A stretch of DNA of 64,000 bases from Gemmatimonadota bacterium (GTDB lineage: Bacteria > Gemmatimonadota > Gemmatimonadetes > Gemmatimonadales > Gemmatimonadaceae), in assembly GCA_003155795.1 (NCBI GenBank), contig PMEM01000043.1:31925-95924 (forward strand), in the 5' to 3' direction. This document shows positions 33,110 through 60,842 of the stretch, piece by piece (position 1 is the first letter of the stretch; the number at the start of each line of letters is the position of its first letter). Both the position numbers and the translations under genes were made by a program. The notes under the pieces were generated by a model. That model was not told the DNA's origin. It searched no databases and was given only the letters and a program-made list of their open reading frames with translations.

Positions 33110-34957
33110 ATGCCGGATAATCCCCGAGATGGAGTTTCGGGAACGCGCTCGCAACGACAGGCGCTTTCACAGTTTATGCGATTACTTCGGCTCGCTCATC
33201 CATATTGGGGAGGCCTAACCAAAGGTCTCTTTCTAGGCATCATCTTGGGCTTGCTCGGGCTAATAACTCCCTACGCCTCGAAACTCCTATTCGACAATGT
33301 GTATCCGGCTCGCGACCTAACGCTACTAAACGTCGTCGTCATCGGAGTAGCGGTCATATCTATAACGACCACGACGATGGGGGCGCTACGCGGGTACTAC
33401 GGCCAAGTGGTCACAGGGAAGCTGGGAAGCGCTGTCGGACTTCTGTACTTCAATCATGTACAGCACCTCCCAGTCGCATTCTTTGACGTGCATCGGGTTG
33501 GCGAGGTCATGAGCAGAGTAGGAGACATTCGCACCGCGCTCGGAACCGTCTCCAAGGTTATACAGTCGGTCTTGGTAAATGGCGTTTTTCTCATTTGTGT
33601 TCCACCCTTCTTAATCGCACTCAGTTGGAAGCTCTCGTTGATTGCCGTCGTGACTACACCTCTTACTGTTGGTGTTACTGCGATAACAAGCCGAGCCGTT
33701 CAACGGTACTTTCGACTCAGCGCAGAAGCGTTCGCCGAGCTTAGCGCGATTCAGGTCGAGGCATTCACGCACATTCGCACAATCAAGGCAATGGCCGGCG
33801 AGCACACGTTTTTCGCCAGCGCGCGCGCCCAAACAGTCAGTACGATTCAGGCCCAACTACGCGCGGCCCGCGTCGGCTCGATAGTGACTATTGTTAATGG
33901 GGTCGTGCGCATAGCGGGTACGGGAGTTCTAACCTGGTATGCGTGGCGATTGATCATCGCGGGTGAATTGACGCTGGGGACCTACGTAGCCTTCACGGCC
34001 TATCTCGGCTATCTAACAGGACCAATAGGTCAACTAACGGATCTCTTTTCGGACTTTCAGCAAACGGCAGTCTCTCTTACCCGCGCATTTGAGTATCTCG
34101 ACATTCTCCCTGAGCAGGACCCGCGCCTCGCTTACGTTCCGCCGTCTGCTCCGACCAAAGGTCGCGGTAGTCTGAAGCTAATCGCGGTCAACCTATCCTA
34201 TGGGTCGGGAAGGCCTATCCTAAAAGAGATATCAGCAGTTCTCGAGGCGGGCAGCATCACGGCTATTGTCGGGCCGAGCGGCGCCGGAAAGTCGTCAATT
34301 TTACGTCTCCTCTGCCGCATGAGCGAACCAACTTCCGGGCAAATCTTGTATGGAGACAGCCCCATCAGTGAATTGAAGATTGGCGACTTCCGTCGCGACG
34401 TCGCGGTGGTCTGGCAAGACCCGGCTCTTTTTCGGGGCACCATTTGGGACAACCTCGCAATGGGAACTTTGGCGGTGTCGATGCAACGAGTTCGCGAAGT
34501 GGTGGCACTGTGCCAGCTCGACAGCCTAATTGACGAGCTTCCACAGCGGTACGAAACGCCAGTTGCAGAATGGGGTGCGACTCTATCAGGTGGACAGCGG
34601 CAGCGGATTGCAATCGCACGTGCCCTTCTCCGGGATACCCCGATCCTGTTGCTCGACGAAGCGACCGCGCAAGTCGATGTGAGAATGGAGAGAGAACTAT
34701 TGACGGCGTTGTTGTCGTGGGCGACGACCAAAATCGTTGTAATTGTGACGCACCGCGTCACGACCGCAGCGATAGCCAATCAGATCTGCGTTGTGGAGGC
34801 GGGGAGAATTACGGCTTCCGGTACACACGAAACGGTTACGGCTGCGAGTCCGATGTATCGCGAATTATGGCAGGCAGCACAAGCAAGTGACACCTTTGCG
34901 GTTGATTGTCCTACAGGAATATTGCGCGCGCGCGACGGGTTGCCTGCGTTCGGGTGA
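33110..34957 (+). CDS. ABC exporter (fused permease/ATPase, no peptidase domain)
   Basis: Six-TM ABC_membrane-like N-terminal half. Walker A GPSGAGKSS, signature LSGGQRQRIAIARAL, Walker B ILLLDEAT. Confidence 0.85.
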   Translation: MPDNPRDGVSGTRSQRQALSQFMRLLRLAHPYWGGLTKGLFLGIILGLLGLITPYASKLLFDNVYPARDLTLLNVVVIGVAVISITTTTMGALRGYYGQVVTGKLGSAVGLLYFNHVQHLPVAFFDVHRVGEVMSRVGDIRTALGTVSKVIQSVLVNGVFLICVPPFLIALSWKLSLIAVVTTPLTVGVTAITSRAVQRYFRLSAEAFAELSAIQVEAFTHIRTIKAMAGEHTFFASARAQTVSTIQAQLRAARVGSIVTIVNGVVRIAGTGVLTWYAWRLIIAGELTLGTYVAFTAYLGYLTGPIGQLTDLFSDFQQTAVSLTRAFEYLDILPEQDPRLAYVPPSAPTKGRGSLKLIAVNLSYGSGRPILKEISAVLEAGSITAIVGPSGAGKSSILRLLCRMSEPTSGQILYGDSPISELKIGDFRRDVAVVWQDPALFRGTIWDNLAMGTLAVSMQRVREVVALCQLDSLIDELPQRYETPVAEWGATLSGGQRQRIAIARALLRDTPILLLDEATAQVDVRMERELLTALLSWATTKIVVIVTHRVTTAAIANQICVVEAGRITASGTHETVTAASPMYRELWQAAQASDTFAVDCPTGILRARDGLPAFG

Positions 34958-37034: not shown

Positions 37035-37059
37035 CGCTCTCACGGGGCGAAAACTTTGT

Positions 37060-39039
37060 ATGGGCATGAATTTTATTATGTCGGCTACAAATGAACGCCT
37101 TGTCGTACCCAAGGCAGCCAGATGTGCTCGCGCGGGACTTTTTGATAGACTGCTCGTTACACTGAGCTTGCTACTCTTGTGGAATGCGACAATTGGTGTA
37201 CCGGCACAAGGCCAGGGAATACTGAATTCGGGATTCGAAGTCCCTAGCGACATCGATCCAGCTCATGCCTGGGGGTGGAGTAGCGATCAAACTGCGTATG
37301 AAGCGTTGAGAGACTGCCGTGTTGCAAAGACGGGCCGCTGTTCGCTGTTAGTGCGCTCCGCGCCTTCTACGAATGCGTCTGACACCGGTACCGTCGCTCG
37401 CCAAATCACCGCTGCCGCGTTAAGGTCCAAGGACGTGGAAGTTCAGGTAAGCGTCCACATCGGCGCTGGCGATGGCCAAGTTAGTCTTTGGATCCGTGCC
37501 GACGGACCTGACGGCCGGAACGAAGGTTTTATTGAAACCCGCCTGCAAGAATCAGCAGACTCGACACAATGGACTACGCTGCGAGCTCGGCTGCACGTTA
37601 CGCACAAAACGCAAGCCTTGACCGTCGGTTTTTTGGTCGTCGGGAGACGGACCGTCTGGTTCGATGATCTACGGATACTCGTAAACGGTTCTGACTACGA
37701 TACTGTCCTAGCGGCCGAGGTACAGCATGCGGTCCCGGAACGAAAGCTTCGTCAATATGCCACTTCGATGGGAACTTCTAATCCTCTGATACCGCTTTCG
37801 GACACGGCCGCGCTCGCGCGGGTCATCGACGGTGCGCGAGTTGTTGCGCTCGGTGAAGCAACGCACGGCACGCATGAGTTTTTTGCAATGAAGGACCGCG
37901 TGATACGGTCGCTCTTCGAACGAAACGGTTTTACTGCGGTATTGATGGAGTGTAGCATGCAGCAAGCTCGGCGCGTAAACGCGTATATACTCACTGGCGC
38001 TGGAGATCCTCGTAAGCTCGTTGCAAACCTTGGATTCTGGTCGTGGGACACTGGCGAGGTAGTTGAACTGATCAGATGGCTTCGGCTATATAAGCTTCAA
38101 GGTCATGAAGTGGAGTTCTGGGGATTCGACACGCAATCCCCCGAAGGAGCGATGGACAGCGTGATTGCGTTCTCACAATCGACAAACCCTGCTATCGCAG
38201 ATCGGATCGCCCGGCGCTATGCTGCAATTCGTCCAATATTACAAAGGCTTCCAGCAACTGGTGGCGGCACCGATTCCGCAAGTTCACAATTCTGGGTTAG
38301 CGCTTCGCGCGACGGGCTTGCACTACTGGATCAGCAGGTTGGATCGGACGTTAACGTCGGTTCACGCGAGAGGTGGGCCCGCCTATATGCAAATATTGTT
38401 GTTCAATCAGGCCTGCAGTCACTTGCCGCAAGCACCCGAAACGGATTAGTACGGGATAGTATTATGGCGGCGAACATCGAGTGGATTATCGCCCAGCTGC
38501 CAAGTACGGCACACGCAGTCGTTTGGGCGCATAACGGACATGTAGAGCGGAGCCAGGCATCCATGGGCTGGCATCTTAACCAGAAGTTCGGTGATAAGTA
38601 CCGAGTTATCGGGATGACCAGCTATGAAGGAAGCTACCTTGCGGCGGGCCCTAACGGTTTTCGGGCTTATTCTGAGGGTGTCGCGCCCGTCGGTAGTATT
38701 GAGTCGGCTCTTCATCGTTTAGGGGTTCCGATCCTGCTATTGAACGTTCGCTCGTTGCGAGCCGATCCAGCTATGATTTGGTTCGCCGAACCACACGAGT
38801 TCCTTGCCGTTGGCGCGATTGCGGAGGAACCATCGTTTTCCCCGGTGACCTTGGCGACAGCGTTCGATGGGCTAATTTATTTCGCTCATACTTCCCCATC
38901 CGCTACTGCGCTTTCGCTGTTGCTACCGGCCACAGTTGCAACGCACGGCTTCATTCGATGGAGCTACGTCCCACTGCTGGTAATTATCGTAGCAGTCAGC
39001 GCGCTAACCGGGCTATATGTTAAAAAGCGCGCGAAGTAG
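37060..39039 (+). CDS. erythromycin-esterase-family protein with N-terminal beta-sandwich module and C-terminal TM anchor
   Basis: VVALGEATHGTHEFFAMKDRVIRSLF matches the Ere/ChaN-type motif. Signal-like N-terminus. C-terminal VPLLVIIVAVSALTGLYVKKRAK. Confidence 0.65.
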   Translation: MGMNFIMSATNERLVVPKAARCARAGLFDRLLVTLSLLLLWNATIGVPAQGQGILNSGFEVPSDIDPAHAWGWSSDQTAYEALRDCRVAKTGRCSLLVRSAPSTNASDTGTVARQITAAALRSKDVEVQVSVHIGAGDGQVSLWIRADGPDGRNEGFIETRLQESADSTQWTTLRARLHVTHKTQALTVGFLVVGRRTVWFDDLRILVNGSDYDTVLAAEVQHAVPERKLRQYATSMGTSNPLIPLSDTAALARVIDGARVVALGEATHGTHEFFAMKDRVIRSLFERNGFTAVLMECSMQQARRVNAYILTGAGDPRKLVANLGFWSWDTGEVVELIRWLRLYKLQGHEVEFWGFDTQSPEGAMDSVIAFSQSTNPAIADRIARRYAAIRPILQRLPATGGGTDSASSQFWVSASRDGLALLDQQVGSDVNVGSRERWARLYANIVVQSGLQSLAASTRNGLVRDSIMAANIEWIIAQLPSTAHAVVWAHNGHVERSQASMGWHLNQKFGDKYRVIGMTSYEGSYLAAGPNGFRAYSEGVAPVGSIESALHRLGVPILLLNVRSLRADPAMIWFAEPHEFLAVGAIAEEPSFSPVTLATAFDGLIYFAHTSPSATALSLLLPATVATHGFIRWSYVPLLVIIVAVSALTGLYVKKRAK

Positions 39040-39232: not shown

Positions 39233-39856
39233 TTAGACTATACGATCGATTCCGGACGTGCGTTTGACAAATAAATGTTCCGCGCGCCTGCGGATGATGG
39301 GACGTTGCTTATACGCTTGTATCGCGGAAACGAGATCGGACATTTTGCACCTGTAGCCCTTCGCAGCGTATCGATGGGTTCGGCATAGGCATTTTAAGGT
39401 GCTAACGTTATTTGGATTCGACTTGCCAAGGATGCCGGCAGCGAAGCATTCTAGAGTGTTTGCGCCTACAAAAAGGACGTTGTCGCCTAAACTGTAAACC
39501 AGCGCTGATATTTCAAAATCCTCCAAACGTGATAGCAAGTGCCGCGCATCACGGAACACTGCTTTGTTTACATCTATCGTAGTGTAGTTGACTTTGCCTG
39601 TCCCACAATCTTGCAATGCGTATCGTCTCCCGCGCAGCGAGTTAAGTCGCTTCTGATCTTCACTGTTACCCGCAGCGATATCCACGTCTCCAAACGGCTC
39701 GGCTCCCGTTAGACAGTGCCGTATGTAGCCCCCGTACAAGTACATAGAGCGAACGCCAAGGCCGGCTATACCTGTAACTGAGAGTAGACGTCGAACTCCG
39801 GCGGCTAGTCGAGGAAATTCGTCCAACCGCCGTATCTCTAGCGGAGACTGATCCAT
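39233..39856 (-). CDS. minimal CCA-adding-enzyme/poly(A)-polymerase-like nucleotidyltransferase
   Basis: MYLYGGYIRHCLTGAEPFGDVDIAA matches the GGxVRD...DxD head-domain motif. LEDFEISALVY resembles RDFTINAL. Confidence 0.6.
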   Translation of the reverse strand: MDQSPLEIRRLDEFPRLAAGVRRLLSVTGIAGLGVRSMYLYGGYIRHCLTGAEPFGDVDIAAGNSEDQKRLNSLRGRRYALQDCGTGKVNYTTIDVNKAVFRDARHLLSRLEDFEISALVYSLGDNVLFVGANTLECFAAGILGKSNPNNVSTLKCLCRTHRYAAKGYRCKMSDLVSAIQAYKQRPIIRRRAEHLFVKRTSGIDRIV

Positions 39857-39898: not shown

Positions 39899-40438
39899 TT
39901 ACACAATTACGACCCCCCCCGAATGGCGCGCGACTTCTTCGGGATTCAGTTCCGGAAAATCCTTTGGCAGTAAGTCGATAATTCGCAAGAATTCTGGGAA
40001 AGGAATGCCATAACCTCTTGAAGCATACTTATACGTTCTTAGCAGCGAAATCAGAGCTCGGCTGGGTGAAATGCGATTCACTGTCAGCAACCGCTGCGCG
40101 ACATGCTCGAAGAAGTGTGATCCAATCAAGAATTCTCCGTCATGGAACGCGATCTGACACACCGTGAAGTCGGCGTCGCGAAGTACGCACGTTGGGTCTG
40201 AATAAATTACTGGGGAACTTACTACGAATGGCGAAGCCGTCAGCTGCGCCGCGAATTGCGCACGGGATGACTCGCTCACGAATGCCACGTTTACATTGGC
40301 AGTTGTCTCGCGTGTCCATAAAGCGCGGACTGCACTGCCAAAAAGCGTGTACTCTGACGCGGGCAAAGCCGCCAAATCGTACCGCTCCAGCAGATTGCGC
40401 AGGGCTCGCAAGACCGACGGGGAACTCTCAGTTCGCAT
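39899..40438 (-). CDS. paralogue of the nucleotidyltransferase-like protein lacking catalytic carboxylates
   Basis: Aligns with 39233..39856 and 48400..48987 (FGSAVRALWTRE, DFTVCQIAFHDGEFLIGSHFFEHVAQRLL). The DxD position reads NVNVA. The ORF extends to 40537; Met at 40438 chosen from the paralogue alignment. Confidence 0.5.
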   Translation of the reverse strand: MRTESSPSVLRALRNLLERYDLAALPASEYTLFGSAVRALWTRETTANVNVAFVSESSRAQFAAQLTASPFVVSSPVIYSDPTCVLRDADFTVCQIAFHDGEFLIGSHFFEHVAQRLLTVNRISPSRALISLLRTYKYASRGYGIPFPEFLRIIDLLPKDFPELNPEEVARHSGGVVIV

Positions 40439-41293
40439 TCGTTGGCGCCCGCCATTTAGTGGTCTGCCTCTTATCCGACTTCCAGCCATACTAAGGTGGA
40501 GTTGAGCTCCCGTTATTGCAAGACCTTGACGTCCCACCGCAAAATGGGTCTAAGGTTAAGTTAACCCGGGTCTGGCCGCACCCGAACTACGGCGAGAGCT
40601 AGGGTGAGTTGGGCATGGTTTCGAAAGCTTCGACGCTAAGGTCCGCGCCAGATCTCGACTGCTGTGAGCCCCGATTAGACGGGACGCTCTGGGAAGGTAG
40701 TTTCACTTCTCAGAAGGGGCTATCTCAATGGAGACACATCGGCGCGGTGCAGATGGCAGGGAATCAACTGACTCGATCGGGGTACCGCTCAGCCGGAGCG
40801 ACATCATCCGCCTTCAATCTGTATCGTGTCACTGGTTACTCCAAGCGGCTCCGCCACATCGCGCTGCCGTAAGCCAAGTGCCATCCGCCGGTTCCGGACT
40901 GATCTCCAATCGTCTTCGGGTCCCCGCGCTTACGCTGGCCGAACCTAGCGCGACGCGGGGACTGCCAGCGTTATTGGTGAAGATCGCCCAGTCGATGATG
41001 CTGGTTCACCCTCCCGACGCTGACAAGCCCGAAAACCTGATCGCATCAATCGATGCGGCGCTTGCAACCGCGAAGTTATAGCGAGTCGATTGTATGACGT
41101 GTGTTGCGAATATTGGCTGGTGGCGGCGACCCGTCTTTTTGATTGGCCAGCGGAGTTTGAGGCAACAACAGCAAGAGTCGTTGTGCCTCCGACTCTCGCC
41201 AATGACGAAGATGGACAAACAGGCACTGTCGAAAGGACCTACGCAAGCTGCCGCCCGTCGAGACCGGCGAGTCCGCGAGACTGCTGGCGAAGT

Positions 41294-43747
41294 TCACGGA
41301 GCCACTCGCCCGCTCACCACTTTGAGCGCGCGCGCGAGCACTTCATCCGTTCCGTCCCGCAGACCCTCGAGTGTCGGTGAGACGGGAATCGTCGGGTGGA
41401 TCCCGACACCGTGATGGGGCGTTCCGTTGCGCTTCTCGACGCGCATCCCGGTCCAAATGACGCTATACCCGCCAGGCAATGCGAAGGGGTCGATAGCGCC
41501 GTTCGTCCCTGCGGTCGTCTCCCCGACAATGGGCCCGAGGTGGTTCTCCTCGACCACGCCCATCGTCGACTCCGCATAGCTCACCGCGCCAGCGCCGGTC
41601 AGGAACACCACTTTCGCGGGCAGGCGAGGCAGCAGTGGCGCGATGACCCAGCCGACGTCGGCGTAGCGCATCAGCGTGTGATCCGGGCGAAGGACTAGTG
41701 GCAGTTCAAAGCGTGCGGAATAGATCGTCGAGTCGCTCAGGTGCGCGAGGAGCGCGGGCGTGTTCAAGCCACGGCTTGGGTAGCCGCGCATATCGAAAAC
41801 GATACCACGTGCTGCCTCCAGACGCGGCATTGCCTGCGCGACATCCCTATCGGTCACACGACTGAGGTCGACGTAGAAGATTCCCGGTTGCAGCTCGGCG
41901 ACTTTATCCGGCCGTGGCTCTGCTGGTGGTTGTTGCAGAACGCGTGAAAGTCGTACGTCGCGCAATGGCGAATTCGCCTGGAGCGGATCGCGCAGACGTA
42001 GCACGGCGACGGTGCCCGGTATTCCGAGCAACACCTTGGAGAGCGCGGCGTGACGGACCCATTGCGTTGTCGCACCCGAAGTGCGGGCCTCGGCGTCGCG
42101 CAACTTCGCCATAGCCGATCGACCATCGACTGCCACAATCTCGTCGCCGATGTGCACGCCCAGCGCGCGCGCCGAATCACCGACGGCGAGCACAACGATT
42201 CGGTTTTCCACCCAACCAAGGAGGACGTCCGGCGCGGCCTGCACGACGGTCGTCCGAAGGACGTTCCCGTGCCCGTCATGCAGGGCGGCGATGAGTCGCT
42301 GCAGCGTCCCGTCGAACGCAGTAGCGTCTGAGTCGAGCGCGGCCTCGTTGAGGGCCGTGCGAAGCGCCGCCGGCCAGTCGGTGTGCACGACGTCGAAGTA
42401 CGGATAGAAGTGCTGCGGGACCATCCATAGCAGTGCCACGTCTGCTAGCCGCGTGGTGCGATCGTCCAGATCGAAGCGTTCCGTCGCAGGTGTGGGCTGC
42501 CACGTCGATCCGGCCGATGCAGTCGCAGTGAGCGAATCCGGCACCGCTTCTTCGGACAAGGCGAGCGGCACAGACGCGGACATGCCCGCGCCGAGTTGAG
42601 CGACGAATGCGGTGTCGGGGCTGGGCACCGGCATCGTGCGCGACGGTCCACAGTCTGTGACGGTGACGTCGCTAGGCAGTCGGCCGGCCGACGCGGAGAC
42701 GCGTCGCAGGCTACTGTGATAACTAGCCCGCGGCAGACCCGCGGGAGGATCCGGCACACCGAAGCCGCAATGCTCCCAGAATACGACGCTGCCATTCCGA
42801 CCAACGCTGTCAGTGTGCCGTGAATGCGGCGGGGCCGCCCCGTTACGATAGAGGTCAACCGTAGGAGCAACGCGCGCGAAGAGCGCGCGAAGAGCGATAA
42901 TGAGACTGTCGGCAGTCGGCACATTCTCCACCACGCGCATGCCGTGCACCGTGAACTCGTTCCAGTTCGTCATCAACGCGACGCTGCCGGGATACCAGAA
43001 TCGCACGTAGCCCACGAGACGCGTAAAGGCGATGATGTTATCGAGAGCACGTGCGGTGAGCGGGGGGAGCGGCTCGCGCCGGGTCGCCGTGAGCCCACGT
43101 CTCGTGCTGCTGGCGGCGACACGCGCAACTCCGATGAGTATGTGCGGTGACCTTAACCCGAGCACACTCGCACGCTGCACCGAACCGACGGACCCAGATT
43201 CGGAGCTCCCAGGACTGTGAGGGCGCGAAATCACGGCGAGCTTAACATCGTCAATCCAGAGGCGCCCGCGGCCTAGGGACAGCGCTCCCAGCCCGATTGA
43301 TGAAGCCCCGTTGGCAACGTCGAGGTCCACTGTGACCGACGTCCAGTCCAGGTTTCCGCCGACATAGCGACGGTCTTGCGTCGTTGCGAAGGCGATGAGC
43401 TTCTCGCCGCTATCTGCACAGACGCAGACCGCGGCGCTTTGTCCGCCGAGTGCCGCGGCTTGCGGGGCGGTGGAGACTTCAATCCGACGTCCGGTGTACG
43501 CAGCAGCTGAGACGCCGGTGCCGGCGTCGGCGAAGCCCGTAGGGTCAACGTTGGTCGACACTCGTAGACCCGCCCGTCCGCTGCGCACCTCGGTGCTGTC
43601 GGCGACGGTCTGAAGGTGGGTGACGGCAACGCCCATCGCGAACCAGCGGTTGAACGACGCCGATTGTGCGACCGCGGAGGCCGATGCAGACACTGTAACG
43701 AGGAACGCAGCGAGCAAGCTAAGCGATGGGTGGCGACAGGAATGCAT
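41294..43747 (-). CDS. secreted S41-family (C-terminal processing/tricorn-like) serine peptidase with PDZ and N-terminal beta-sandwich
   Basis: Signal peptide MHSCRHPSLSLLAAFLVTVSASASAVAQ at the internal Met (ORF runs to 44008). PDZ-like GVHIGDEIVAVDG. Ser motif TGAGAVSYAEST. Confidence 0.7.
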   Translation of the reverse strand: MHSCRHPSLSLLAAFLVTVSASASAVAQSASFNRWFAMGVAVTHLQTVADSTEVRSGRAGLRVSTNVDPTGFADAGTGVSAAAYTGRRIEVSTAPQAAALGGQSAAVCVCADSGEKLIAFATTQDRRYVGGNLDWTSVTVDLDVANGASSIGLGALSLGRGRLWIDDVKLAVISRPHSPGSSESGSVGSVQRASVLGLRSPHILIGVARVAASSTRRGLTATRREPLPPLTARALDNIIAFTRLVGYVRFWYPGSVALMTNWNEFTVHGMRVVENVPTADSLIIALRALFARVAPTVDLYRNGAAPPHSRHTDSVGRNGSVVFWEHCGFGVPDPPAGLPRASYHSSLRRVSASAGRLPSDVTVTDCGPSRTMPVPSPDTAFVAQLGAGMSASVPLALSEEAVPDSLTATASAGSTWQPTPATERFDLDDRTTRLADVALLWMVPQHFYPYFDVVHTDWPAALRTALNEAALDSDATAFDGTLQRLIAALHDGHGNVLRTTVVQAAPDVLLGWVENRIVVLAVGDSARALGVHIGDEIVAVDGRSAMAKLRDAEARTSGATTQWVRHAALSKVLLGIPGTVAVLRLRDPLQANSPLRDVRLSRVLQQPPAEPRPDKVAELQPGIFYVDLSRVTDRDVAQAMPRLEAARGIVFDMRGYPSRGLNTPALLAHLSDSTIYSARFELPLVLRPDHTLMRYADVGWVIAPLLPRLPAKVVFLTGAGAVSYAESTMGVVEENHLGPIVGETTAGTNGAIDPFALPGGYSVIWTGMRVEKRNGTPHHGVGIHPTIPVSPTLEGLRDGTDEVLARALKVVSGRVAP

Positions 43748-44498
43748 CTGTAGAGTGTCCGGATACAAATCGGCGGTGGCGGCAGCGGGTTCGTGGTGCC
43801 GCACGAGTCGAAGCCTCTGCCTGCAGCCCAAACGGTCTGGGTATTGACGCGTGGTTGCAGTATTGCCCAAGCTACCTGCGCACGTTGGCGTTTGTAATCG
43901 GTGCTCTGATCTCATAGAAGCATCTGGTGTTGCGGCATGATTCGCAGTTCGCTCTCCGCGTGCGCGGATGCGGCGAGCAGCGGTACTTCGATAGGAGGTT
44001 AGACTCATTTACTTCGAGCGATTGATAGTCATCTAAAGTACCTCACTATTGCGGTCGTGGAGCAATCTGGAAACATCGTTTCGGAGAAGGGGCTCTACCA
44101 CGCAGACTGCTGCGCTCATTTCCACCGTGGAGCCGTATCGGCCAATCGAGGCAGGAGTAGAGACATTTCCATTTTGCCCATGGGTTTACGATGTGCTGGC
44201 CCCGAGGGGATCGGTCTTATTTGGCGCGCCAATGTCGCACCCCAAGGAGCTCGAGGCAATTTCCCACGCTAACTAAAAGCCGGCTGAGCGAGACGCGTTG
44301 TTACTAGCTCGCATAGTAAGCGGCCGCCTCATTCCGGAAGTCTATGCGCGAGCTGGCCCGCAGGGTGACACCGTGCGTGTACTAGTACCATTGCGGCGTT
44401 TCGCGTTCGCACCAAATGGACATGGGTTCTCGACGTAGCGGAGCTAGATGACGCCGTTGGTACAAAATGCACCGTATTGCTACCGCCGCCATACTGAG

Positions 44499-45713
44499 TT
44501 AAGACGCGCTACTCGCGCGCGCGCGCAGCTCGTCGAGAAGCAGTTCTGACACGCGGGCCTTTCCCGTCACTATCTTGCCGCGAACGGCGAAACCGCGCTT
44601 AAAGTCTCCCGGTAACCTACCCATAGTATCATGCAGGTCGATTCGTACGACTACCGCAAACCGTCCGGTACCATCAGTCGGCGGAGACATCGGAGTGCCC
44701 GCGGTGCCAAGTCGCGTCGCAGATTCGGGGGCTACCGAGACCACGCTACCGTGGAGATCCCGGCCCTTCAAGAACAACGCAGAGGGAAGAGTCAGAATGA
44801 CGGCTTGGCCGACGCGCACATCGTGAACATTTCGCTCATCGACTAGCAGGCGCGCTGTCCAACTGCCGAGATCTTCGATCTCGAGAATTCCCTCGCCGGC
44901 TGATACGGACGCGCCGATGAGATCTCGTGGCCGTTCAGTGAGCACGATTCCGTCGATCGGGGCAGTAAGATCCACTCGTCGGCGTTCGCCACGCGCGTGA
45001 GCAACGTCAGCGCGAAGTCGATCAAGCTCAAGAGTACTCTTGGCGAAGTCCAATGAATCGAGCTTTGCTTGCTCGCGCGCAGCAACCGCCGACTTCACTC
45101 GTGCTTCTGCCGACTGCACATCAGCGATCGCAAGATCAACATTGACACTCTTGCCGATCGTATAGGCTTTCAGCACTGAATCGACGTTGGCCCTTAGGCT
45201 AAACTCCATCAATCGCTGCCGAAGAGCCGCTTGCGCCTTAATTACATTTGTCTGTTCTTGGGTTACTTGAGCTGTCTTTTGGATCAGATCGAGTGGCGCA
45301 GTAGCTCGAGCACGGTTGAGCTCACCGCGACTCTCATCGTACTGGATTTCGAGGCGTTGTAGGTCCGCGTCGGCAGACACTGGATCTAAGCGTGCTACTA
45401 TTTGTCCGACTTTGACTGGCTGGCTAACGTCAACATCCACCTGTGTAACAATTCCGCCAATTGAAGGGCGCACATTCGCGACGTGGAGTGGCTCTAAAGT
45501 TCCATCAGCGCCGACAGATACAGTCACGGAAAGCAAGAACGCGGTGAGAGCACTTAGCAGCACCAGCGTCGCAAATGCGCCGATTGTAAGGCCAACCGCG
45601 CGCTGCACAATACGCTGCCCCGGGACTATGACGTCATCGAGCGAGGGCAGCTCAAACACGTACTTCGCGTTAGCCGAGTTAGCCATTCGGACAGCTTGTT
45701 GGCAAGTTGGCAC
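44499..45713 (-). CDS. HlyD-family membrane fusion (periplasmic adaptor) protein
   Basis: N-terminal TM, long coiled-coil region, lipoyl/beta-barrel segments (VKVGQIVARLD, GQAVILTL). Alternative start at 45686. Confidence 0.75.
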   Translation of the reverse strand: MPTCQQAVRMANSANAKYVFELPSLDDVIVPGQRIVQRAVGLTIGAFATLVLLSALTAFLLSVTVSVGADGTLEPLHVANVRPSIGGIVTQVDVDVSQPVKVGQIVARLDPVSADADLQRLEIQYDESRGELNRARATAPLDLIQKTAQVTQEQTNVIKAQAALRQRLMEFSLRANVDSVLKAYTIGKSVNVDLAIADVQSAEARVKSAVAAREQAKLDSLDFAKSTLELDRLRADVAHARGERRRVDLTAPIDGIVLTERPRDLIGASVSAGEGILEIEDLGSWTARLLVDERNVHDVRVGQAVILTLPSALFLKGRDLHGSVVSVAPESATRLGTAGTPMSPPTDGTGRFAVVVRIDLHDTMGRLPGDFKRGFAVRGKIVTGKARVSELLLDELRARASSAS

Positions 45714-45788
45714 TAACTGCGCGGAGAGTGCACCAAAAAAGGAGTCACACCTATCACATTCGCCAAAGCACGTACGACTCCCCTCCGA

Positions 45789-46088
45789 CTACGGCATGTA
45801 ACACGGAGCGCAGGTCCACGACATGTCTTGAGTTGGACACGCACAGGATCCGCAACTTTGCTGACAAGTATTGCATTCGCTATAGTGGCAGCTCATCGGG
45901 CACGTTGTGCCGGCCGTACAGGCCCAACACGTCTTTACACTTGGACAAGTACAATATCGGAGCTGGCTGGTTGAATCTCCTCCGTAATACGTTGCCGTCC
46001 CTCCTGCGACCTTCGCAAGCGCGCTGTCACCCAGCTTTCGCAGTGTTTCGCGAGTAATGGTGAGCTTGCGCCTTTGTGGATTGTCCAT
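45789..46088 (-). CDS. lanA: lanthipeptide/RiPP precursor peptide with double-glycine leader
   Basis: Leader MDNPQRRKLTITRETLRKLGDSALAKVAGG. 69-aa core with 13 Cys and 19 Ser/Thr. Lies between the C39-ABC and HlyD genes. Confidence 0.8.
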   Translation of the reverse strand: MDNPQRRKLTITRETLRKLGDSALAKVAGGTATYYGGDSTSQLRYCTCPSVKTCWACTAGTTCPMSCHYSECNTCQQSCGSCACPTQDMSWTCAPCYMP

Positions 46089-46201: not shown

Positions 46202-48187
46202 TTAAATCAAGACATTATCGGGTAGTTTTAGGACACGTCCTTTCCACTCAGGCGGAGCTTCTTGTGCAGATAGGACGACAAGAATTCCGGTAAGATCGCA
46301 TAGTATATCAAGGGCATGGTCACGAGAAGCCGCGTCGAGAGACATCGTGGGTTCGTCGAGTATATAAACTTGCGATGTAGCGATGAGCGCACGAGCAATG
46401 GCAAGTCGGGCTAAGACAGATGGGCGCAGCTGGCCGCCGAGCGGATCGAGGCGCGTTTGGAGACCGAGAGGGAGACTGGAAATCTCGACATCGAGACGAA
46501 GCGTAGCGCAGACGTCGCGCAGGGCGGTGTCCGGGACCCCGCTCCTTCCGCACCGGAGATTGTCTGCGATAGAGCCGTGATACCAGCAGGCTCGCTCTAG
46601 CAAGGCACCCACGTCTTGAAACTTTGAATCGCGAGATGAGATGTTTACGTCGATGCCGTTCCACAACACACGTCCACTTTGGGGTTTCAGAATCCCCAAT
46701 ACTATCTGGCCAAGCATCGTCTTCCCGCTACCGGACGGACCTGTAACCCAAAGCCGATCCCCTTCGAGGAGAGACAATGAGAATGGCGGCGAGTTCGCGC
46801 ACGCAGCGGCGCCAATCTTGACATCTTCCACGCAGATTCTTGTCACCCGTTCCCGCACAAGCGCACCCGGCACAGACGATGCTGGCTGACTCAACTTCCG
46901 TTCTTCAAGCGAATGCGGAGAGAAGGCAGACGCGGCGAGTTTCATATTCTCCTCAACTGCTCGAAAACATAAGCCAACCACACAGGCACCCACGAATTGT
47001 CGAAATGGAACCGTAGCCGACCACTCGATCGCTATTACAACGGTTGTCGCAAGAGCCGACAGGGCGAGCCATTTTAGGGGGCCCAAGTTCTTTTTCTCGC
47101 GCTTGGATTCGCTCTGTGCAACTCTACGCGTCTCTAATACATATTGTAATACGTTAGAGCGAGTACCGGTCGCAGCGAATGTTGGCATACCCGTCAGCGA
47201 GCGCGCGACCGCTGCCCTGTGACGAGTCCAATATATATTCTCGGATTCTGGAGGATGAAGGACCGCCGCAATAAAGGTGGCCCACAGGCTTGTTGTTAGG
47301 ACCAATGCTGACACAGCCAACGAATGAACCAATATTGATTGGCCGGCCGGTGCACACAGCAATGGAAGAAGTGTTCCGGTAATCAACGCCGCAGTCCACG
47401 TACCCTTCGCTGCACTCGATCCTGCAACTGTATTCGCCTCGAATGCCGCTAGCTGCCACCTACCGACGTTACTCTTGGAAACAGTAGGGGTCGCGGAAGG
47501 CGGGAAAAGTGCCGACTGGGCTATCGTCAACCACAAGCGTTCTCGCCGCGTTACTGCTTCTTCCAAAGCGTGGGCTAGGACAAGTAACGAAAGCGCCGTA
47601 GCGGTCGTCGCGCTAACGGCGGCGATGACCGTTGGCGCAACGTCGTTTCTAGTGAACGCGACGCCAAGAAGCAATCCGGCCACCAAAGCGCCCAGGACGG
47701 CGACCGTGAGTTCGTACGAGGTTACCGTATTCAGCGCGCCTCGGAGAGAACTTGTGCAACGAATGATCCAGCCCAAGACACTTCGTGAAGGTTTGCTAAA
47801 GTGGAGAGCTGTCCCTCCGAAACGCGCTATTGCCTCACTAGTTGCCACGGCCCTGCGGCCCGCGGCAGGATCGACAATTGTAATCTCTGATGCACCTGCG
47901 TGTTCTAGAATCACAAAGTGCATGGGCGTCCATTCCAGAATTGCCGGAGTTGATAATAGATTCAGCTGCGTCGGCTCAATTGCCACGCCAACGCCGTGTA
48001 AACCGGATGCATGGGCAATGGCCAACAAGTCAGCGGCTGTCATGACGTCGCCGGACGCCTGAATCGCGAGCGTCATATCCCGGGCGTAGTAGTCCAACAC
48101 CATGGCGATACAGACAAGACCGCAATCGGAATTGCTGGACTGCCGAATTATGCGGACACGCCCAAACCTCTTGAAGGGATTTCTCAA
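46202..48187 (-). CDS. lanT: bifunctional C39 peptidase-ABC transporter (PCAT/LanT type)
   Basis: C39 motifs QSSNSDCGLVCIAMVLDYY and MHFVILEH. Walker A GPSGSGKT, Walker B VYILDEPT. Divergent signature PLGGQLRPS. Confidence 0.8.
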   Translation of the reverse strand: MRNPFKRFGRVRIIRQSSNSDCGLVCIAMVLDYYARDMTLAIQASGDVMTAADLLAIAHASGLHGVGVAIEPTQLNLLSTPAILEWTPMHFVILEHAGASEITIVDPAAGRRAVATSEAIARFGGTALHFSKPSRSVLGWIIRCTSSLRGALNTVTSYELTVAVLGALVAGLLLGVAFTRNDVAPTVIAAVSATTATALSLLVLAHALEEAVTRRERLWLTIAQSALFPPSATPTVSKSNVGRWQLAAFEANTVAGSSAAKGTWTAALITGTLLPLLCAPAGQSILVHSLAVSALVLTTSLWATFIAAVLHPPESENIYWTRHRAAVARSLTGMPTFAATGTRSNVLQYVLETRRVAQSESKREKKNLGPLKWLALSALATTVVIAIEWSATVPFRQFVGACVVGLCFRAVEENMKLAASAFSPHSLEERKLSQPASSVPGALVRERVTRICVEDVKIGAAACANSPPFSLSLLEGDRLWVTGPSGSGKTMLGQIVLGILKPQSGRVLWNGIDVNISSRDSKFQDVGALLERACWYHGSIADNLRCGRSGVPDTALRDVCATLRLDVEISSLPLGLQTRLDPLGGQLRPSVLARLAIARALIATSQVYILDEPTMSLDAASRDHALDILCDLTGILVVLSAQEAPPEWKGRVLKLPDNVLI

Positions 48188-48399: not shown

Positions 48400-48987
48400 C
48401 TAACGAGTAGGAAGCACAGTTCCGCCCGCAAGCGAGTAGAGATCGAGCGGCTGACTCGGCGCTCCCGACAGATTTAACGCATTAAGAATCATATCCAAGT
48501 GTTCAGCTGAAACGCGAAATCCCATCGCTACTAACCGAAATGTGCGGAGCAGCGTGATGTAAGCCGTGGCCGGCTCAATGTTTCTCAGAACGAGTAATTG
48601 TTCCGCGACATGCTCGAAGAAGCTGTGTCCAACGATGAATTGCCCGTCATGCCAGGCGACTTGATCTATGGTAAAAGCACCTCGTTGCACAATTTGAGCG
48701 GTAGAAATGCCATTTCCGTTGGCGATTTCAAGAGCAGCGTGGCGTAGCGGTACGCGCGTGAGGAAATCGACTTCCGCTGCTCGGCTCGTGAAATGGATCC
48801 GTACCAGCGCAGGTGCTTCCCTTGTCCAAAGTGCCCTAATCCCATCGCCCGAGAGCGCGTAAGATTTAGCCGACGTTCCGTTTAGTCTAAAATCGCTCCT
48901 AAGGCTACGAAGGTGCTCGGCAATTATTGGGAAGCGAGCTTCGTCCTCTTGGGCGACAGCGTTCCAGTCCGCGATATTAGTTGTCAT
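48400..48987 (-). CDS. second catalytically degenerate paralogue of the nucleotidyltransferase-like protein
   Basis: YALSGDGIRALWTRE...AFTIDQVAWHDGQFIVGHSFFEHVAEQLL aligns with 39899..40438. Sits between lanB and lanT. The ORF extends to 49044. Confidence 0.5.
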   Translation of the reverse strand: MTTNIADWNAVAQEDEARFPIIAEHLRSLRSDFRLNGTSAKSYALSGDGIRALWTREAPALVRIHFTSRAAEVDFLTRVPLRHAALEIANGNGISTAQIVQRGAFTIDQVAWHDGQFIVGHSFFEHVAEQLLVLRNIEPATAYITLLRTFRLVAMGFRVSAEHLDMILNALNLSGAPSQPLDLYSLAGGTVLPTR

Positions 48988-49088: not shown

Positions 49089-52000
49089 TTACGCGTTAGT
49101 GGCATCATGGGATGGAGGGGGTGTTACCGCTCGCACTCGCGCGAACGCAGACTCGTGGAAACGACGAATGAAATCGTAAACTCTCTGTTCCTCAACCGGG
49201 TTAGTTGTTCCTACCATTCGGTTTACGTGCATGTGGGTGAGGCTCAGAGCAATGTCCTCGAGAGCCGCTCCGAGCTCGCCGCAGCGCAGCAGATCGTGAA
49301 GGCGTGCCGCCGAGGCCGCAACTCGCATCGATCGTCGCACTAATTCTTCGCATGCATTTGCAAAAGTGGGCTCCGTTGCCGCGTGAAGGCCAAGGACGGT
49401 TTCAATATCGCCGCGGTTAGCACGATACGCTTCACTCCACACGCGGCGTGCGTCCCCCGAGGGCGGGCGTAGACGTCCAAGCAAGAGTACACGCTGCTCA
49501 GCCGTAAATTGAAGATCGGCAAGCAATGTATCTATTCCTCGCAGTAAAATCATGTCGCGAGCATGCGCATTCTCATCCCCTGGGTAGCCCCCCAGTACCG
49601 TAATAGCAAAGTCACTATCGGCGCAAAAAACATCCTCCGCAATGGTAATGGAACGACTCCCGCCATAGCGTTCGATCTCGCGCGAATAGGTATCGTAACG
49701 CAGGGACGTGAGCAGGCGGTTATCGAGGAATTCTTCTGATCGCGCTTCGAGATCTGGTAAGACTTCGCACCGGATCCGAGACGGATCGCCACAAAGGCGA
49801 AGCCGAATATGCGGTTTTGGATCTGAATACCGAATGAAAAACCAACGATCGATGGCGCCCGAGTCACGCGCCGTCTGAATCACGGGTGCGACGAGATGGC
49901 TAAGAATTCGGTTAGTCGTCCCCTCACCTGCGAAGAGTTGCGCGTACGTCCATCCAGACGTCGGCGTAAACTTTCGTCGGATTGAGGTCGGCGCGATCGT
50001 TACTGTGTTCGGCGCCATTACTTCTTCCCGACTCGTCTGCCGGCGTCGTAAGAACGGAACGATCAGTTCGTGGGTGAATCTTCCCTCTGGTCCTTCTACC
50101 ACGAGAGAATTGTCGTCGGGATATTGCTCCGCCAGTTGTACGGCGTGGTGCTTTCTGATCGACTCGACGACAACATCCACAGCGATCGGAAGATCCAGAT
50201 CCAGCGACAGTAAACTGTCTCCCTCTGAAAGGAGTACTCGTCGCGGGATACCGCGCTCGTTACGGAGCAACTGGAATGCTTGGTACGTAGCGACTCTTGC
50301 GGTACTCGGCTTCAAGGCTAATTCGGATGCAGCAATTCTCCATTGAGCGCGGCAGAGGACCGCCTGCCCGTAAACCACTCGCGGAAGAAAGGGCAATTGT
50401 TCCAGCCGCCCCCAAACCCAAGACGCGCCGAACAGTACGCCTTGTTCACGTAGAAGTGCGAAAAAGCGGTAAATCGGGAGGTTGCGAGGGTGACTCAAAT
50501 TGTGCGCCGTAGTAATGCGCGGCAGGACCTCGCGACCGAGACGGCGAGACCACAAAACTACACGATCGTCCCGAACGGTTACGAAGAGATCAGATATGGG
50601 AATCTGCTGCGACGCTGGCGCTCCAGATCTTCCCAGGAAAGGAATTTCATAGTCGCGAAGCACGGGCCGACAAAGGATGTTTCCCATGCGTCCTTCAGGC
50701 AGATGCACGACTTCAGCGAGAGCCTGATCGGGGAATAGCGCTGCCTCGCTACTGAGAAAGCGCTGTAGCGCATGCGTAAGATCCTCATCGCAGTGACAGA
50801 ATCGGCCCAGCAGATTTCCACCGGATGGCCCGGTAACCATATGAAATAGCACTCTAAGCGGGCTAGGTGTGCTTCCGGGCCGTACATCACGCACCAGCGT
50901 AACGACTGCAGCTATGGACGATGGTAACGGCGACGGAGTGCGTGACGCAAGCGAGGCAACGTCGTCGGCAGTAAGCGCGACTTCCACAGCCCCTGATTTC
51001 GCGGCACGTATTACAAGACCAGCCAAAACGGCCTGGCGAGCTCCCTCAGCACTTAGCTCTCGTAGATCACCTTCGCTAACGGCGCCTTCAAGACCTAGGT
51101 TGTCTAGGCCGATTCCAATTTCCGCATCGAGTGCCTCCGCGAGCGGCACGAGTTCCATCTCATACCGTTCGCGAAACGCGCGACGGAACGAGCGAAGAGG
51201 ATCGGTCGGTAGCGTTATACGTTGGAGAAGATCAATCCCCGCCTCAATCTCATGCATCTCAACAGCTCCGATAACCGCAGCCTCAAGACTCGTTGACATG
51301 TCTACTTGGAAAAGCCGCGCAGGATCCGCCCGTACCGGGAACTCGCCCAGGAGCTCGGCGATCCCGTTATAGTCCTGTACCGAGCAGCCGATGCCACGAG
51401 CGTCGATGTTTGCAAGCAGTTCCCGGGCGCGTTTAAGTCGATCGACCGTTGGCGCGGTCACCTCCTGCGTAGATAGCGTGTCAATCATGCCGTCGAGTGC
51501 GGCCATACCGGTCACCAACGGCTCGATATCCGCCACGATGATTTGAGCATCAAGGAGTTCATACACGAAATCGCGCGCCTCGTTGACTGAAACGTCTTCG
51601 TTCACCAATGCAAGTGCCAGTTCCGCGATCGTAGCTCCATTCTCAGCAAGTCGAATAACTTCGTCCAGAGGGTCTGACCGGTCGACAGCAACAAGTCGGT
51701 ACGCCCGATCCCCACCTTGACTGTATGCTTCCATATAATGAAAGCGGCCCCCGGCTGCGTACAGACTTGAGTTCGGTCGGATGGTAAATACGGGTCCGAA
51801 TGTACGATTAAGCAGAACTGCATCGGCTAAATCGCCAAGAAATTGTGTGTCCAACCGAGTGGTACGCCGGTAAGTTTCCCGGCTTGCGAGGCGTAGATCC
51901 GTTTGGTCGCCCACTGCCCCGAGCGCGAATCCGGCAAACAAGCCGAACGGAGTCGCACGTGCGGACATGCGTGCGAAATAACGAAACAGGCTGCGACCAA

Positions 52001-52349
52001 TGCGATGACCGCGCTCTGACTCTGGGTTGATTTCCCAGGCGGCAATTCGATTGTGAAGATCCGGAGTAGCGAGATAAATCGCCTCGCGCACTCCACGCAA
52101 CTTGAGAACGCGAGTCATCAATCGCCAGACACTTGCATCGTCCGCAGCGATCCCCTCGCTAAGTTCACCCGACTCACCAGCGCAAGCAAGTCCTACCGCG
52201 ATCGTCTCTCCAACCATAAACTCGTTCGAGGCGAGGAATGGCGTCCTTAAAGCAAAGAACCCACCCGCAGAATAGCCGGTCAGCACTGACGGTACGGCGG
52301 ACAAAGCTCTTGAAGGAATCGCTGCGTCGCCATCGTGAGTTGTATTCAT
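49089..52349 (-). CDS. lanB: full-length class I lanthipeptide dehydratase (LanB)
   Basis: 1086 aa. N-terminal GGFFALRTPFL motif. C-terminal SpaB_C/thiopeptide-type domain WFFIRYSDPKPHIRLRL. Confidence 0.85.
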   Translation of the reverse strand: MNTTHDGDAAIPSRALSAVPSVLTGYSAGGFFALRTPFLASNEFMVGETIAVGLACAGESGELSEGIAADDASVWRLMTRVLKLRGVREAIYLATPDLHNRIAAWEINPESERGHRIGRSLFRYFARMSARATPFGLFAGFALGAVGDQTDLRLASRETYRRTTRLDTQFLGDLADAVLLNRTFGPVFTIRPNSSLYAAGGRFHYMEAYSQGGDRAYRLVAVDRSDPLDEVIRLAENGATIAELALALVNEDVSVNEARDFVYELLDAQIIVADIEPLVTGMAALDGMIDTLSTQEVTAPTVDRLKRARELLANIDARGIGCSVQDYNGIAELLGEFPVRADPARLFQVDMSTSLEAAVIGAVEMHEIEAGIDLLQRITLPTDPLRSFRRAFRERYEMELVPLAEALDAEIGIGLDNLGLEGAVSEGDLRELSAEGARQAVLAGLVIRAAKSGAVEVALTADDVASLASRTPSPLPSSIAAVVTLVRDVRPGSTPSPLRVLFHMVTGPSGGNLLGRFCHCDEDLTHALQRFLSSEAALFPDQALAEVVHLPEGRMGNILCRPVLRDYEIPFLGRSGAPASQQIPISDLFVTVRDDRVVLWSRRLGREVLPRITTAHNLSHPRNLPIYRFFALLREQGVLFGASWVWGRLEQLPFLPRVVYGQAVLCRAQWRIAASELALKPSTARVATYQAFQLLRNERGIPRRVLLSEGDSLLSLDLDLPIAVDVVVESIRKHHAVQLAEQYPDDNSLVVEGPEGRFTHELIVPFLRRRQTSREEVMAPNTVTIAPTSIRRKFTPTSGWTYAQLFAGEGTTNRILSHLVAPVIQTARDSGAIDRWFFIRYSDPKPHIRLRLCGDPSRIRCEVLPDLEARSEEFLDNRLLTSLRYDTYSREIERYGGSRSITIAEDVFCADSDFAITVLGGYPGDENAHARDMILLRGIDTLLADLQFTAEQRVLLLGRLRPPSGDARRVWSEAYRANRGDIETVLGLHAATEPTFANACEELVRRSMRVAASAARLHDLLRCGELGAALEDIALSLTHMHVNRMVGTTNPVEEQRVYDFIRRFHESAFARVRAVTPPPSHDATNA

Positions 52350-52450: not shown

Positions 52451-53248
52451 TCACGCGTCCCGTAATCGCCTAACAATGCAATCGACAAATGCCTTCGCGT
52501 CCATCTCCGCGCGGATCTCGAGAACCCCCATCCCTGTTAATTCCCTACATTGTTTGTCGAGTCTACGATGTTCGCTATACCCAAGGAAGGTAGCCGTCCG
52601 CTTCATGCTGAGGTCGCGGTCCATAAGACAGGGAAACGCGCGAACGAGCCGCGCTGCAGCAACCAACCGACGCGTCGAAGTAATTCGCGCTCGGAAAATC
52701 CATCTATCAAGTGAGCGTCGTGTCAGTCCAGCTGCAGCCGCCAACTGCTGCGCCGACTGAGGAGCGATCGGGGCTGTGAACATTAGAGTGATCGCGAACT
52801 GCAATCGCTCTGGGAGCACAGAAATGAGGGGACTAAGCCGTTCGGCGAGTTGCAGATCAAGGCCGGCCATGGGCAGCGCAGCGAAAGCCTCCCCCAACCG
52901 ATCCATTCCAGATGTCGGATTTCTAAGGACTACATCAACGTATGAGACACGGGACAGTACAAGTAACGCGACGATAAGCCGCGGTGTCAGCGAGCCATAC
53001 AGCACGACTGGAATTTGGCGCCTGTGTAGAGCGGCAGCGATCGCGTAAATGTTTGTCTCGTCAGTCAGCGCCGGATCCAACACGAGAACGTCCACACCAA
53101 TCCGCACCGCTTCAATATCGAGCCCGCAGACGATGTGTTGCGTCTGATGAGGACCCACGCTGAGAAGCGCTGTCCGAAGGGAGGCAGCTGCGAGGGCCGG
53201 GAGCCGGATCAGCACATGCACGTCAATTGGCCTCAGAAGGCGAGCCAT
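52451..53248 (-). CDS. AraC-type HTH regulator with receiver-like N-terminal domain (putative)
   Basis: C-terminus FLGYSEHRRLDKQCRELTGMGVLEIR resembles the AraC second HTH. N-terminal VDVLVLDP...IPVVLYG resembles a CheY-like fold. Confidence 0.45.
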   Translation of the reverse strand: MARLLRPIDVHVLIRLPALAAASLRTALLSVGPHQTQHIVCGLDIEAVRIGVDVLVLDPALTDETNIYAIAAALHRRQIPVVLYGSLTPRLIVALLVLSRVSYVDVVLRNPTSGMDRLGEAFAALPMAGLDLQLAERLSPLISVLPERLQFAITLMFTAPIAPQSAQQLAAAAGLTRRSLDRWIFRARITSTRRLVAAARLVRAFPCLMDRDLSMKRTATFLGYSEHRRLDKQCRELTGMGVLEIRAEMDAKAFVDCIVRRLRDA

Positions 53249-60837: not shown

Positions 60838-60842
60838 CCACT

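Follow-up and report, generated by a model that had tools for sequence, protein, structure and literature searches.

The window analyzed here is a 64,000-nucleotide (64-kb) stretch of Gemmatimonadota contig PMEM01000043.1, and positions refer to this stretch unless another locus is named. The minus strand encodes a small Cys-rich peptide, LanA, which an earlier note on this DNA had taken for a lanthipeptide precursor with a double-glycine (GG) leader. This assignment is upheld by a hidden Markov model (HMM) of the leader that recognizes LanA with E = 1e-11, and by the presence in the same operon of a LanB dehydratase and an ATP-binding cassette (ABC) exporter with a C39 peptidase domain (C39-ABC). 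The minus-strand gene order is AraC, LanB, 195-aa, C39-ABC, LanA, HlyD, S41, 212-aa, 207-aa.

52451..53248, minus strand: AraC-type regulator, upstream of LanB (Pfam HTH_18, 7.7e-08, 33.0 bits, just under the 33.6 cutoff)
49089..52349, minus strand: LanB, full-length class I dehydratase, 1086 aa (Lant_dehydr_N 3e-140, Lant_dehydr_C 7e-56)
48400..48987, minus strand: 195-aa accessory protein, paralogue of the 212- and 207-aa genes; extendable to a TTG at 49044
46202..48187, minus strand: C39-peptidase ABC exporter, LanT/PCAT-like, 661 aa (Peptidase_C39 1e-17, ABC_tran 1.5e-15)
45789..46088, minus strand: LanA precursor gene (translation, composition, independent leader HMM)
44499..45713, minus strand: HlyD-family periplasmic adaptor, 404 aa (Pfam HlyD_3, HlyD_D23)
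41294..44008, minus strand: peptidase-like protein of the S41 family, 904 aa, flanked by HlyD and the 212/207 pair (Peptidase_S41 1.7e-09)
39899..40537, minus strand: 212-aa accessory protein, paralogue of the 195-aa protein (similarity to locus L003, alignment)
39233..39856, minus strand: 207-aa accessory protein, distant member of the 195/212 family (similarity to locus L003)

Translation of the minus strand at 45780-46100 gave the leader MDNPQRRKLTITRETLRKLGDSALAKVAGG (46088-45999, 30 aa, ending in VAGG) followed by the core TATYYGGDSTSQLRYCTCPSVKTCWACTAGTTCPMSCHYSECNTCQQSCGSCACPTQDMSWTCAPCYMP (45998-45792, 69 aa) and a stop codon (45791-45789). The core consists of 13 Cys, 11 Thr and 8 Ser among its 69 residues, and Ser or Thr directly precedes eight of the Cys compared with 3.6 expected from composition-preserving shuffles (P = 0.005). 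The translation in the earlier note and its counts of core length, Cys, Ser/Thr (19) and Ser/Thr-Cys dipeptides were all reproduced exactly. At 13 Cys per 69 aa, the core is the six-frame maximum of the window. Only three further six-frame segments reach at least 9 Cys per 69 aa and, among the segments listed, all those with 11-13 Cys lie inside the LanA open reading frame (ORF).

The ATG at 46088 aligns with the starts of homologous leaders and has a G-rich, Shine-Dalgarno-like run upstream; an alternative GTG start at 46118 would lengthen the ORF. The leader HMM was built from seven leaders of other loci without the window's own sequence. It scored LanA at 41 bits in the six-frame window, where the next-best match had E = 1.3. 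The Cys maximum, the position of the start and the unique HMM match identify LanA as a real gene and not a chance ORF. Searches with tblastn and the leader HMM found no further precursors in the window, leaving LanA as the sole candidate substrate of LanB. The peptide has both parts expected of a class I precursor, a leader and a core bearing Ser, Thr and Cys.

A 13-bp hairpin with a U run (45714-45790, minus strand; -23.6 kcal/mol) lies immediately 3' of the LanA stop. Leaky terminators are frequent after the precursor gene in lantibiotic operons. The energy of this hairpin equals that of shuffled sequence (z = 0), and a promoter and terminator scan gave no signal above chance.

LanB contains both the glutamylation and the elimination domain and shares its operon with LanA, which makes it a class I LanB at the domain level. 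Its relatives in the PDB are MadB, MibB and NisB. LanB is 39-42% identical to its nearest relatives, which come from GG-leader clusters, and 41.8% identical to the LanB of locus L009, which contains a long LanC of the type described below. There is no close LanB in the GTDB representative genomes, where the best match, in Haliangiales locus L001, is only 36% identical. The Ser/Thr/Cys-rich core and the name of a LanB match ('thiopeptide-type', TIGR03891) brought a thiopeptide or azole-containing RiPP (a peptide made on the ribosome and modified after translation) into consideration. Clusters of that kind contain a YcaO cyclodehydratase and a [4+2] pyridine synthase. This reading was rejected because Pfam detected no YcaO or related family among the ORFs of at least 150 aa; the TIGR03891 match is the LanB elimination domain.

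The C39 domain of the exporter has a predicted catalytic triad of Cys22 (QSSNSDCG), His90 (MHFVIL) and Asp106 (IVDPAAG), with a spacing resembling that of Cys27/His101/Asp117 in LahT. The ABC signature motif of the same protein is degenerate (LGGQ). The HlyD adaptor is 37% identical to the HlyD of L003. The AraC regulator also adjoins LanB on the identical ENA scaffold L002, and ENA scaffold WOOD18-1_SAMN07125006 carries an identical AraC-LanB-195aa-C39 segment.

The 195-aa protein had no Pfam, NCBIfam or PDB match, and its single-sequence AlphaFold2 (AF2) model was unusable (predicted local distance difference test score, pLDDT, 37). It is 33% identical to the L003 gene that follows HlyD. The 212-aa protein resembles L003 gene 17718-18269 (43% identity) and the 195-aa protein (33% identity), and the 207-aa protein is 40% identical to L003 gene 18269-18903. 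The motif GGxIRxxLxGxxxxGDVDI in the 207-aa protein (sequence GGYIRHCLTGAEPFGDVDIAAG) is similar to the one in the head of CCA-adding enzymes and poly(A) polymerases. The match to the Pfam PolyA_pol head has only E = 0.19, and the likeness to nucleotidyltransferases is therefore a lead, not a finding. Neither a profile of the 195/212/207 family nor the 207-aa protein alone matched the PDB. Genes of 182-212 aa that follow LanB in loci L005-L007 were considered as relatives of the 195-aa protein and rejected as unrelated HlyD-like stubs (FRREALE...).

The S41 peptidase-like protein may be a trimming protease or have a role in immunity. It is assigned to the cluster from its position only, and no counterpart was found in the related loci. 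The GC content is 0.648 at 42001-44000, inside this gene, versus ~0.56 in the rest of the cluster, which hints at a separate origin of the gene.

Leader family, cleavage site and core

Class I LanAs whose leader has an LxLxKx5L motif and ends in GG, and whose clusters encode a C39 protease, were first described in Bacteroidetes (Walker et al. 2020, PMC7268733). The LanA leader motif, LxIxRx5L...VAGG, fits this type. The NF038153 model (lant_leader_L1a) scored LanA residues 7-30 at 17.5 bits, under its curated cutoff of 22 bits, and a local copy of Pfam gave no match to LanA with the E limit raised to 10. Two true LanA relatives, P0122 (58 aa) and P0123 (108 aa), both related at the level of the leader, emerged when 1.84 billion representative proteins were searched exhaustively with phmmer; two other matches, P0121 and P0124, were spurious repetitive proteins. 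P0123 is located in L003, where the gene order is LanA-LanC-LanB-ABC-HlyD. Loci of the nearest LanB relatives have the order LanA(s)-LanC-LanB-small HlyD-like protein-C39 ABC, and their precursors carry Pfam PF28317 with leaders such as KKLTLSKETLRTLDEKDLSQVVGG. Six of the seven leader-family peptides in the retrieved loci adjoin LanC and LanB (L003, L005-L008). The seventh, P0122 (L004 5335-5511), has no LanB or LanC in its flanks (~5 kb upstream, 10 kb downstream); TIR/SIR2 and STAND-NTPase genes lie nearby. These sequence comparisons support the placement of the LanA leader in the class I leader family that ends in GG and is paired with C39 transporters.

In substrates of C39/PCAT peptidases, GG occupies positions -2/-1, the residue at -3 is small, and those at -4, -7 and -12 are hydrophobic; the peptidase has a Cys/His/Asp triad. 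The Gly30 site of LanA has the sequence of such a double-glycine secretion substrate. A second GG (YYGG, G36-G37), which the earlier note believed to make the cleavage site ambiguous, puts Tyr, Tyr, Thr and Lys at the same positions and does not fit. The ambiguity is therefore resolved in favor of Gly30, and the predicted cut after this residue is not really ambiguous. The L003 precursor shares AGG-x3-YYGG with LanA, a likeness between two sequences only. Trimming in a further step, by the S41 peptidase-like protein for instance, is possible but speculative.

The claim of an uncharacterized core withstood the phmmer search, which detected no homologue of the core among the 1.84e9 proteins; a word-indexed search with the LanA peptide also gave no match. 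Leader-family members were collected with a degenerate DNA pattern for the leader that found at least 120 metagenomic stretches, a sample of the family, with 118 unique complete precursors. The sampled cores have a median length of 30 aa and a median of 4 Cys. Five contain at least 9 Cys, the maximum is 11, and only 2 are 60 aa or longer. LanA has the most Cys among the 119 members. The nearest rivals in Cys count are on metagenome contigs L034 and L098, where cores of 57 aa and 59 aa each contain 11 Cys; these short contigs do not reach as far as their enzymes. The Cys density of the LanA core is 0.19, and the sampled maximum is 0.24. Because family cores already reach 9-11 Cys, LanA is, within this sample, the upper end of a continuous range and no isolated case. 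By Cys count, the peptide that the earlier note called exceptionally dense is thus the extreme of a family. It does not stand as a unique case, given the 9-11 Cys of its leader family and the 12-14 Cys of the long-LanC precursors described below. A GG-leader precursor in locus L097 adjoins a 2211-aa ORF (228-6860, plus strand) with a C-terminal LanC-like domain (~1873-2145), which may be a large fusion enzyme.

Dipeptides of Thr or Ser with Cys are the arrangement behind the intertwined rings D and E of nisin (Thr25-Cys26). Ring positions in LanA were predicted with a published pairing rule that starts from the C-terminus and joins each Cys to the closest unpaired Ser/Thr that lies 3 or more residues upstream (PMC11251773). 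This heuristic paired all 13 Cys with spans of 3-7 residues, and the predicted ring code, SSCCSSCCSSCSCSCSCSCSCCSSCC, corresponds to a chain of overlapping rings. Some of the Cys may form disulfides or remain free, and the number of rings could lie anywhere up to 13. A 2024 survey lists known lanthipeptides with at most 7 bridges (geobacillin I, elgicin), predicts a maximum of 8 bridges in its own set, and puts the longest known precursor at 78 aa (PMC11251773). The LanA core could carry nearly twice the cross-links of any characterized relative, and the earlier suggestion that it could exceed classical ring numbers agrees with this comparison. Nothing relevant was found in the literature on lanthipeptides with more than 7 rings.

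A long LanC on the opposite strand

The earlier note had associated LanA with both LanB and LanC genes. LanB is in the operon. No LanC is adjacent, as the neighboring gene at 44499-45713 encodes the HlyD adaptor, and the only cyclase is a long LanC located 9 kb away in a plus-strand operon of three genes.

33110..34957, plus strand: ABC exporter without a peptidase domain (ABC615), 615 aa (Pfam ABC_membrane, ABC_tran)
35049..37034, plus strand: long LanC, 661 aa (Pfam LANC_like 1.5e-48; TIGR03897 209 bits)
37012..39039, plus strand: erythromycin-esterase-like protein, 675 aa (Erythro_esteras 2e-57); its start overlaps the long LanC stop

The ABC exporters of L011 and L003 share 51% identity with ABC615, and that of L013 shares 48%. 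No counterpart of the esterase-like protein was found in the related loci. Residues ~50-430 of the long LanC form a LanM-type cyclase domain with AHG, WCHG and CHG motifs. The protein matches positions 543-932 of the LanM model TIGR03897 at 209 bits and LicM2 with E = 3e-14, and it is closer to the C-terminal domains of LanM enzymes than to NisC. The catalytic His and the Zn ligands (H215, C300, C346 and H347) are invariant across 33 members of the long-LanC family. The long LanC therefore has the Cys-Cys-His zinc site and catalytic His of a class I cyclase, in an atypical form.

An AF2 model of the long LanC computed with the family alignment had a pLDDT of 89.6 and a predicted template modeling score (pTM) of 0.91. 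Foldseek aligned the whole model with LanCL1/2, LicM2, MadC and NisC over ~440 columns, which cover the LanC toroid only. The C-terminal domain (residues ~440-661; 36339-37031, plus strand) was confidently modeled as helices, a small beta-sheet and three helices and had no Pfam or PDB sequence match. A role of this domain in binding the substrate or the leader is possible. The complete architecture, C-terminal domain included, recurs at 25-36% identity in about 30 proteins of 650-780 aa, and an identical long LanC is present on an ENA contig (P0125). No description of long LanC proteins was found in the literature searched. The contexts of six long-LanC relatives were inspected.

L009: full-length LanB with its stop overlapping the long LanC start; C39 gene alongside; precursor off the contig
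L011: split LanB, then long LanC, ABC, HlyD, S8 peptidase; precursor 12146-12487, 113 aa, 12 Cys
L012: split LanB, then long LanC; precursor of 66 aa, 4 Cys
L013: split LanB, then long LanC, ABC, HlyD, S8 peptidase; precursor 3430-3807, 125 aa, 14 Cys
L014: fetched stretch without LanB; no precursor identified in it
L015: long LanC and S8 peptidase, with ABC, HlyD fragments and split LanB a few kb off on the other strand; precursor 8537-8872, 111 aa, 13 Cys

The long LanC directly follows LanB in L009, L011, L012 and L013. The precursors of L011, L012, L013 and L015 have an MKKLxLxLDDLxVESF leader, unlike the GG leader of LanA, and no description of the giant precursors with this leader (L011, L013 and L015) was found in the literature searched. 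The four giant precursors, from the window, L011, L013 and L015, together contain 27 Ser/Thr-Cys dipeptides compared with 12 expected, and no shuffle reached 27. Judged by these gene neighborhoods, the long LanC is a genuine LanB partner that goes with giant Cys-rich precursors, and the 13-Cys LanA core fits this apparent substrate pattern.

Assignment of the cluster

LanA is probably the structural gene of a class I lanthipeptide in a ~20-kb cluster (33110-53248) composed of two convergent operons. For each component of L003 (LanA, LanC, LanB, ABC, HlyD and the 184- and 227-aa genes) the window contains a counterpart, and these counterparts are spread over both operons. The long LanC stands where L003 has an ordinary LanC. 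No LanB remnant or second precursor was found near the long LanC. The distribution of the L003 counterparts and the absence of such a remnant argue that the two operons are a single cluster.

The proposed pathway would start with the docking of LanA on LanB through the 30-aa leader (LxIxRx5L...VAGG). LanB would glutamylate Ser and Thr using Glu-tRNA(Glu) and eliminate glutamate to form dehydroalanine (Dha) and dehydrobutyrine (Dhb). The tRNA-Glu and GluRS of the producer are often required by class I systems of distant phyla (PMC9993889). The Zn-dependent long LanC would add the Cys thiols to these residues to form many (methyl)lanthionine rings, which the Ser/Thr-Cys dipeptides would interlock in the manner of nisin rings D/E. 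The exporter's C39 domain would cut after Gly30, and the product would be exported with HlyD across the Gram-negative envelope. The analysis establishes the gene, its leader family, the families of the enzymes, their intact motifs for catalysis and metal binding, and the linkage between the operons; we infer the action of LanB and the long LanC on LanA, the ring number and any activity.

Four observations weigh against this assignment. The LanA-LanB operon has no LanC of its own, and the long LanC lies ~9 kb off on the opposite strand. The long LanC has ~30% identity to the ordinary LanCs of GG-leader clusters over ~100 aa only. The LanCs detected in the 120 sampled leader loci are all of the ordinary 420-470 aa type and none has a C-terminal extension, so that the sampled loci offer no precedent for a GG leader together with a long LanC. 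L009, which combines LanB, a long LanC and a C39 gene, may be an exception. An ISL3 transposase (29741-31453) is located 1.7 kb upstream of the long-LanC operon, and the arrangement may be a recent rearrangement.

In one alternative, LanA is a lanthipeptide precursor but the long LanC is not its cyclase. The ABC/long LanC/esterase operon would be a remnant of an L011/L013/L015-type cluster, and the GG cluster would have lost its own LanC. Rings would then arise non-enzymatically or by an unlinked cyclase, or the product would stay largely dehydrated with free or disulfide-bonded Cys. Every LanC detected in the sampled GG-leader loci is ordinary, the long LanC is highly divergent from them, a transposase is nearby, and the L011, L013 and L015 precursors use a different leader (LxLxLDDLxVESF), all of which speaks for this alternative. 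We consider it improbable. The long LanC has neither a LanB remnant nor a second precursor near it. The ABC, HlyD and 184-/227-aa genes that are adjacent in L003 are divided between both operons of the window, as would suit a single functional unit. L009 joins a 42%-identical LanB to a long LanC with a C39 gene alongside, and the high Cys count of LanA matches the pattern of the long-LanC precursors.

LanA could also be a disulfide- or free-thiol-rich GG-leader bacteriocin or metal-binding peptide that is exported by the C39 transporter with LanB irrelevant or inactive. The core has four CxxC motifs as well as CxC motifs, as in metallothionein-like and zinc-ribbon sequences, GG leaders are also used by unmodified bacteriocins, and P0122 lacks LanB in its flanks (L004). 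However, the leader family adjoins LanB and LanC in the other retrieved loci, and LanA lies inside a LanB operon as the only candidate substrate of an enzyme whose domains are intact. Ser/Thr outnumber Cys in the core and are placed 3-7 residues upstream of every Cys. An unmodified product is accordingly very unlikely. Also very unlikely is a cluster that is decaying or silent on a mobile element and yields no mature product: the window is rich in mobile-element genes, the layout is rearranged relative to L003 and the C39 exporter has a degenerate ABC signature (LGGQ), but all cluster ORFs are intact and full-length with their catalytic motifs present, and the LanB/195-aa/C39 segment recurs unchanged on an independent ENA scaffold.

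The assignment of LanA to a single two-operon cluster can be extended to a broader proposal, which we regard as rather unlikely. LanA and the L011/L013/L015 precursors would form an unrecognized group of hyper-crosslinked class I lanthipeptides. The C-terminal domain of the long LanC would hold these very long substrates while 12-14 interlocked thioether rings are made, close to twice the present record of 7, and the 195/212/207 family, with its nucleotidyltransferase-like motif, would supply a new accessory activity, possibly linked to Glu-tRNA.

Outside the cluster, 1-31453 and 56899-61406 are mobile-element-like, with two N6/N4 DNA methylases, a RecJ-like protein, an SLT transglycosylase and a 1165-aa DUF6094 methyltransferase-like protein. 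The same two regions also encode an M78-UvrD helicase, the ISL3 transposase, DUF5131, an SNF2 helicase and NADAR. At 24434-26920 (plus strand), two overlapping small ORFs (152 and 177 aa) of no known family precede a ThiF/E1-like protein of 517 aa. This gene group may be a ubiquitin-like conjugation or defense operon.

Comparison with known systems

If most of the 13 Cys form thioethers, the LanA product would be the most heavily cross-linked lanthipeptide known (characterized maximum, 7). It would also put the proposed synthetic limit on ring number and ring overlap to the test, and the extra domain of the long LanC could show how a cyclase copes with substrates of 70-100 residues. A product constrained in this way would probably be very protease-stable and an attractive scaffold. 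A GG leader and C39 export are joined here with a long LanC in a new way, and such modularity is possibly useful for engineering.

One of the closest known systems is the GG-leader class I lanthipeptide family (PF28317 Lant_leader_dom/NF038153), which has the leader motif, the GG end, LanB, C39-ABC and HlyD (L003) in common with the window, although the LanA leader scores below the NF038153 cutoff. In 118 sampled family peptides the median core has 30 aa and 4 Cys and none exceeds 11 Cys, whereas the LanA core has 69 aa and 13 Cys. The family uses an ordinary LanC of 420-470 aa; the window has a long LanC in a separate convergent operon.

The uncharacterized L011/L013/L015 clusters, with relatives named from Thermoanaerobaculia, Gemmatimonadales and Longimicrobium, have long LanCs that are 30-36% identical to the window protein over more than 90% of its length. 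They also share precursors of 99-125 aa with 12-14 Cys and enrichment in Ser/Thr-Cys dipeptides, an ABC exporter (48-51% identical) and HlyD with the window. They differ in their split LanB, MKKLxLxLDDLxVESF leader and S8 peptidase and in the lack of C39, where the window combines a full-length LanB with a GG leader and a C39-ABC. No publication was found on LanB plus long-LanC clusters of this type.

Nisin, geobacillin I and elgicin share the LanB/LanC chemistry with the window, including the Thr-Cys arrangement that gives the intertwined rings of nisin. Their cores have no similarity to the LanA core and they stay within 7 bridges and precursors of 78 aa (PMC11251773). Unlike the window system, they have FNLD-type leaders, a LanP protease and Gram-positive producers. 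The best sequence match to the cyclase domain of the window is that of class II LanM enzymes such as LicM2, with the Zn ligands conserved. The dehydratase domain of LanM is absent from the window protein, which is a stand-alone cyclase with an extra C-terminal domain and a LanB partner.

The chemistry and the leader type are already known, and LanA therefore extends a known kind of system and is not a new kind. What is new is the orphan, record-size Cys-rich core and the apparently undescribed long LanC.

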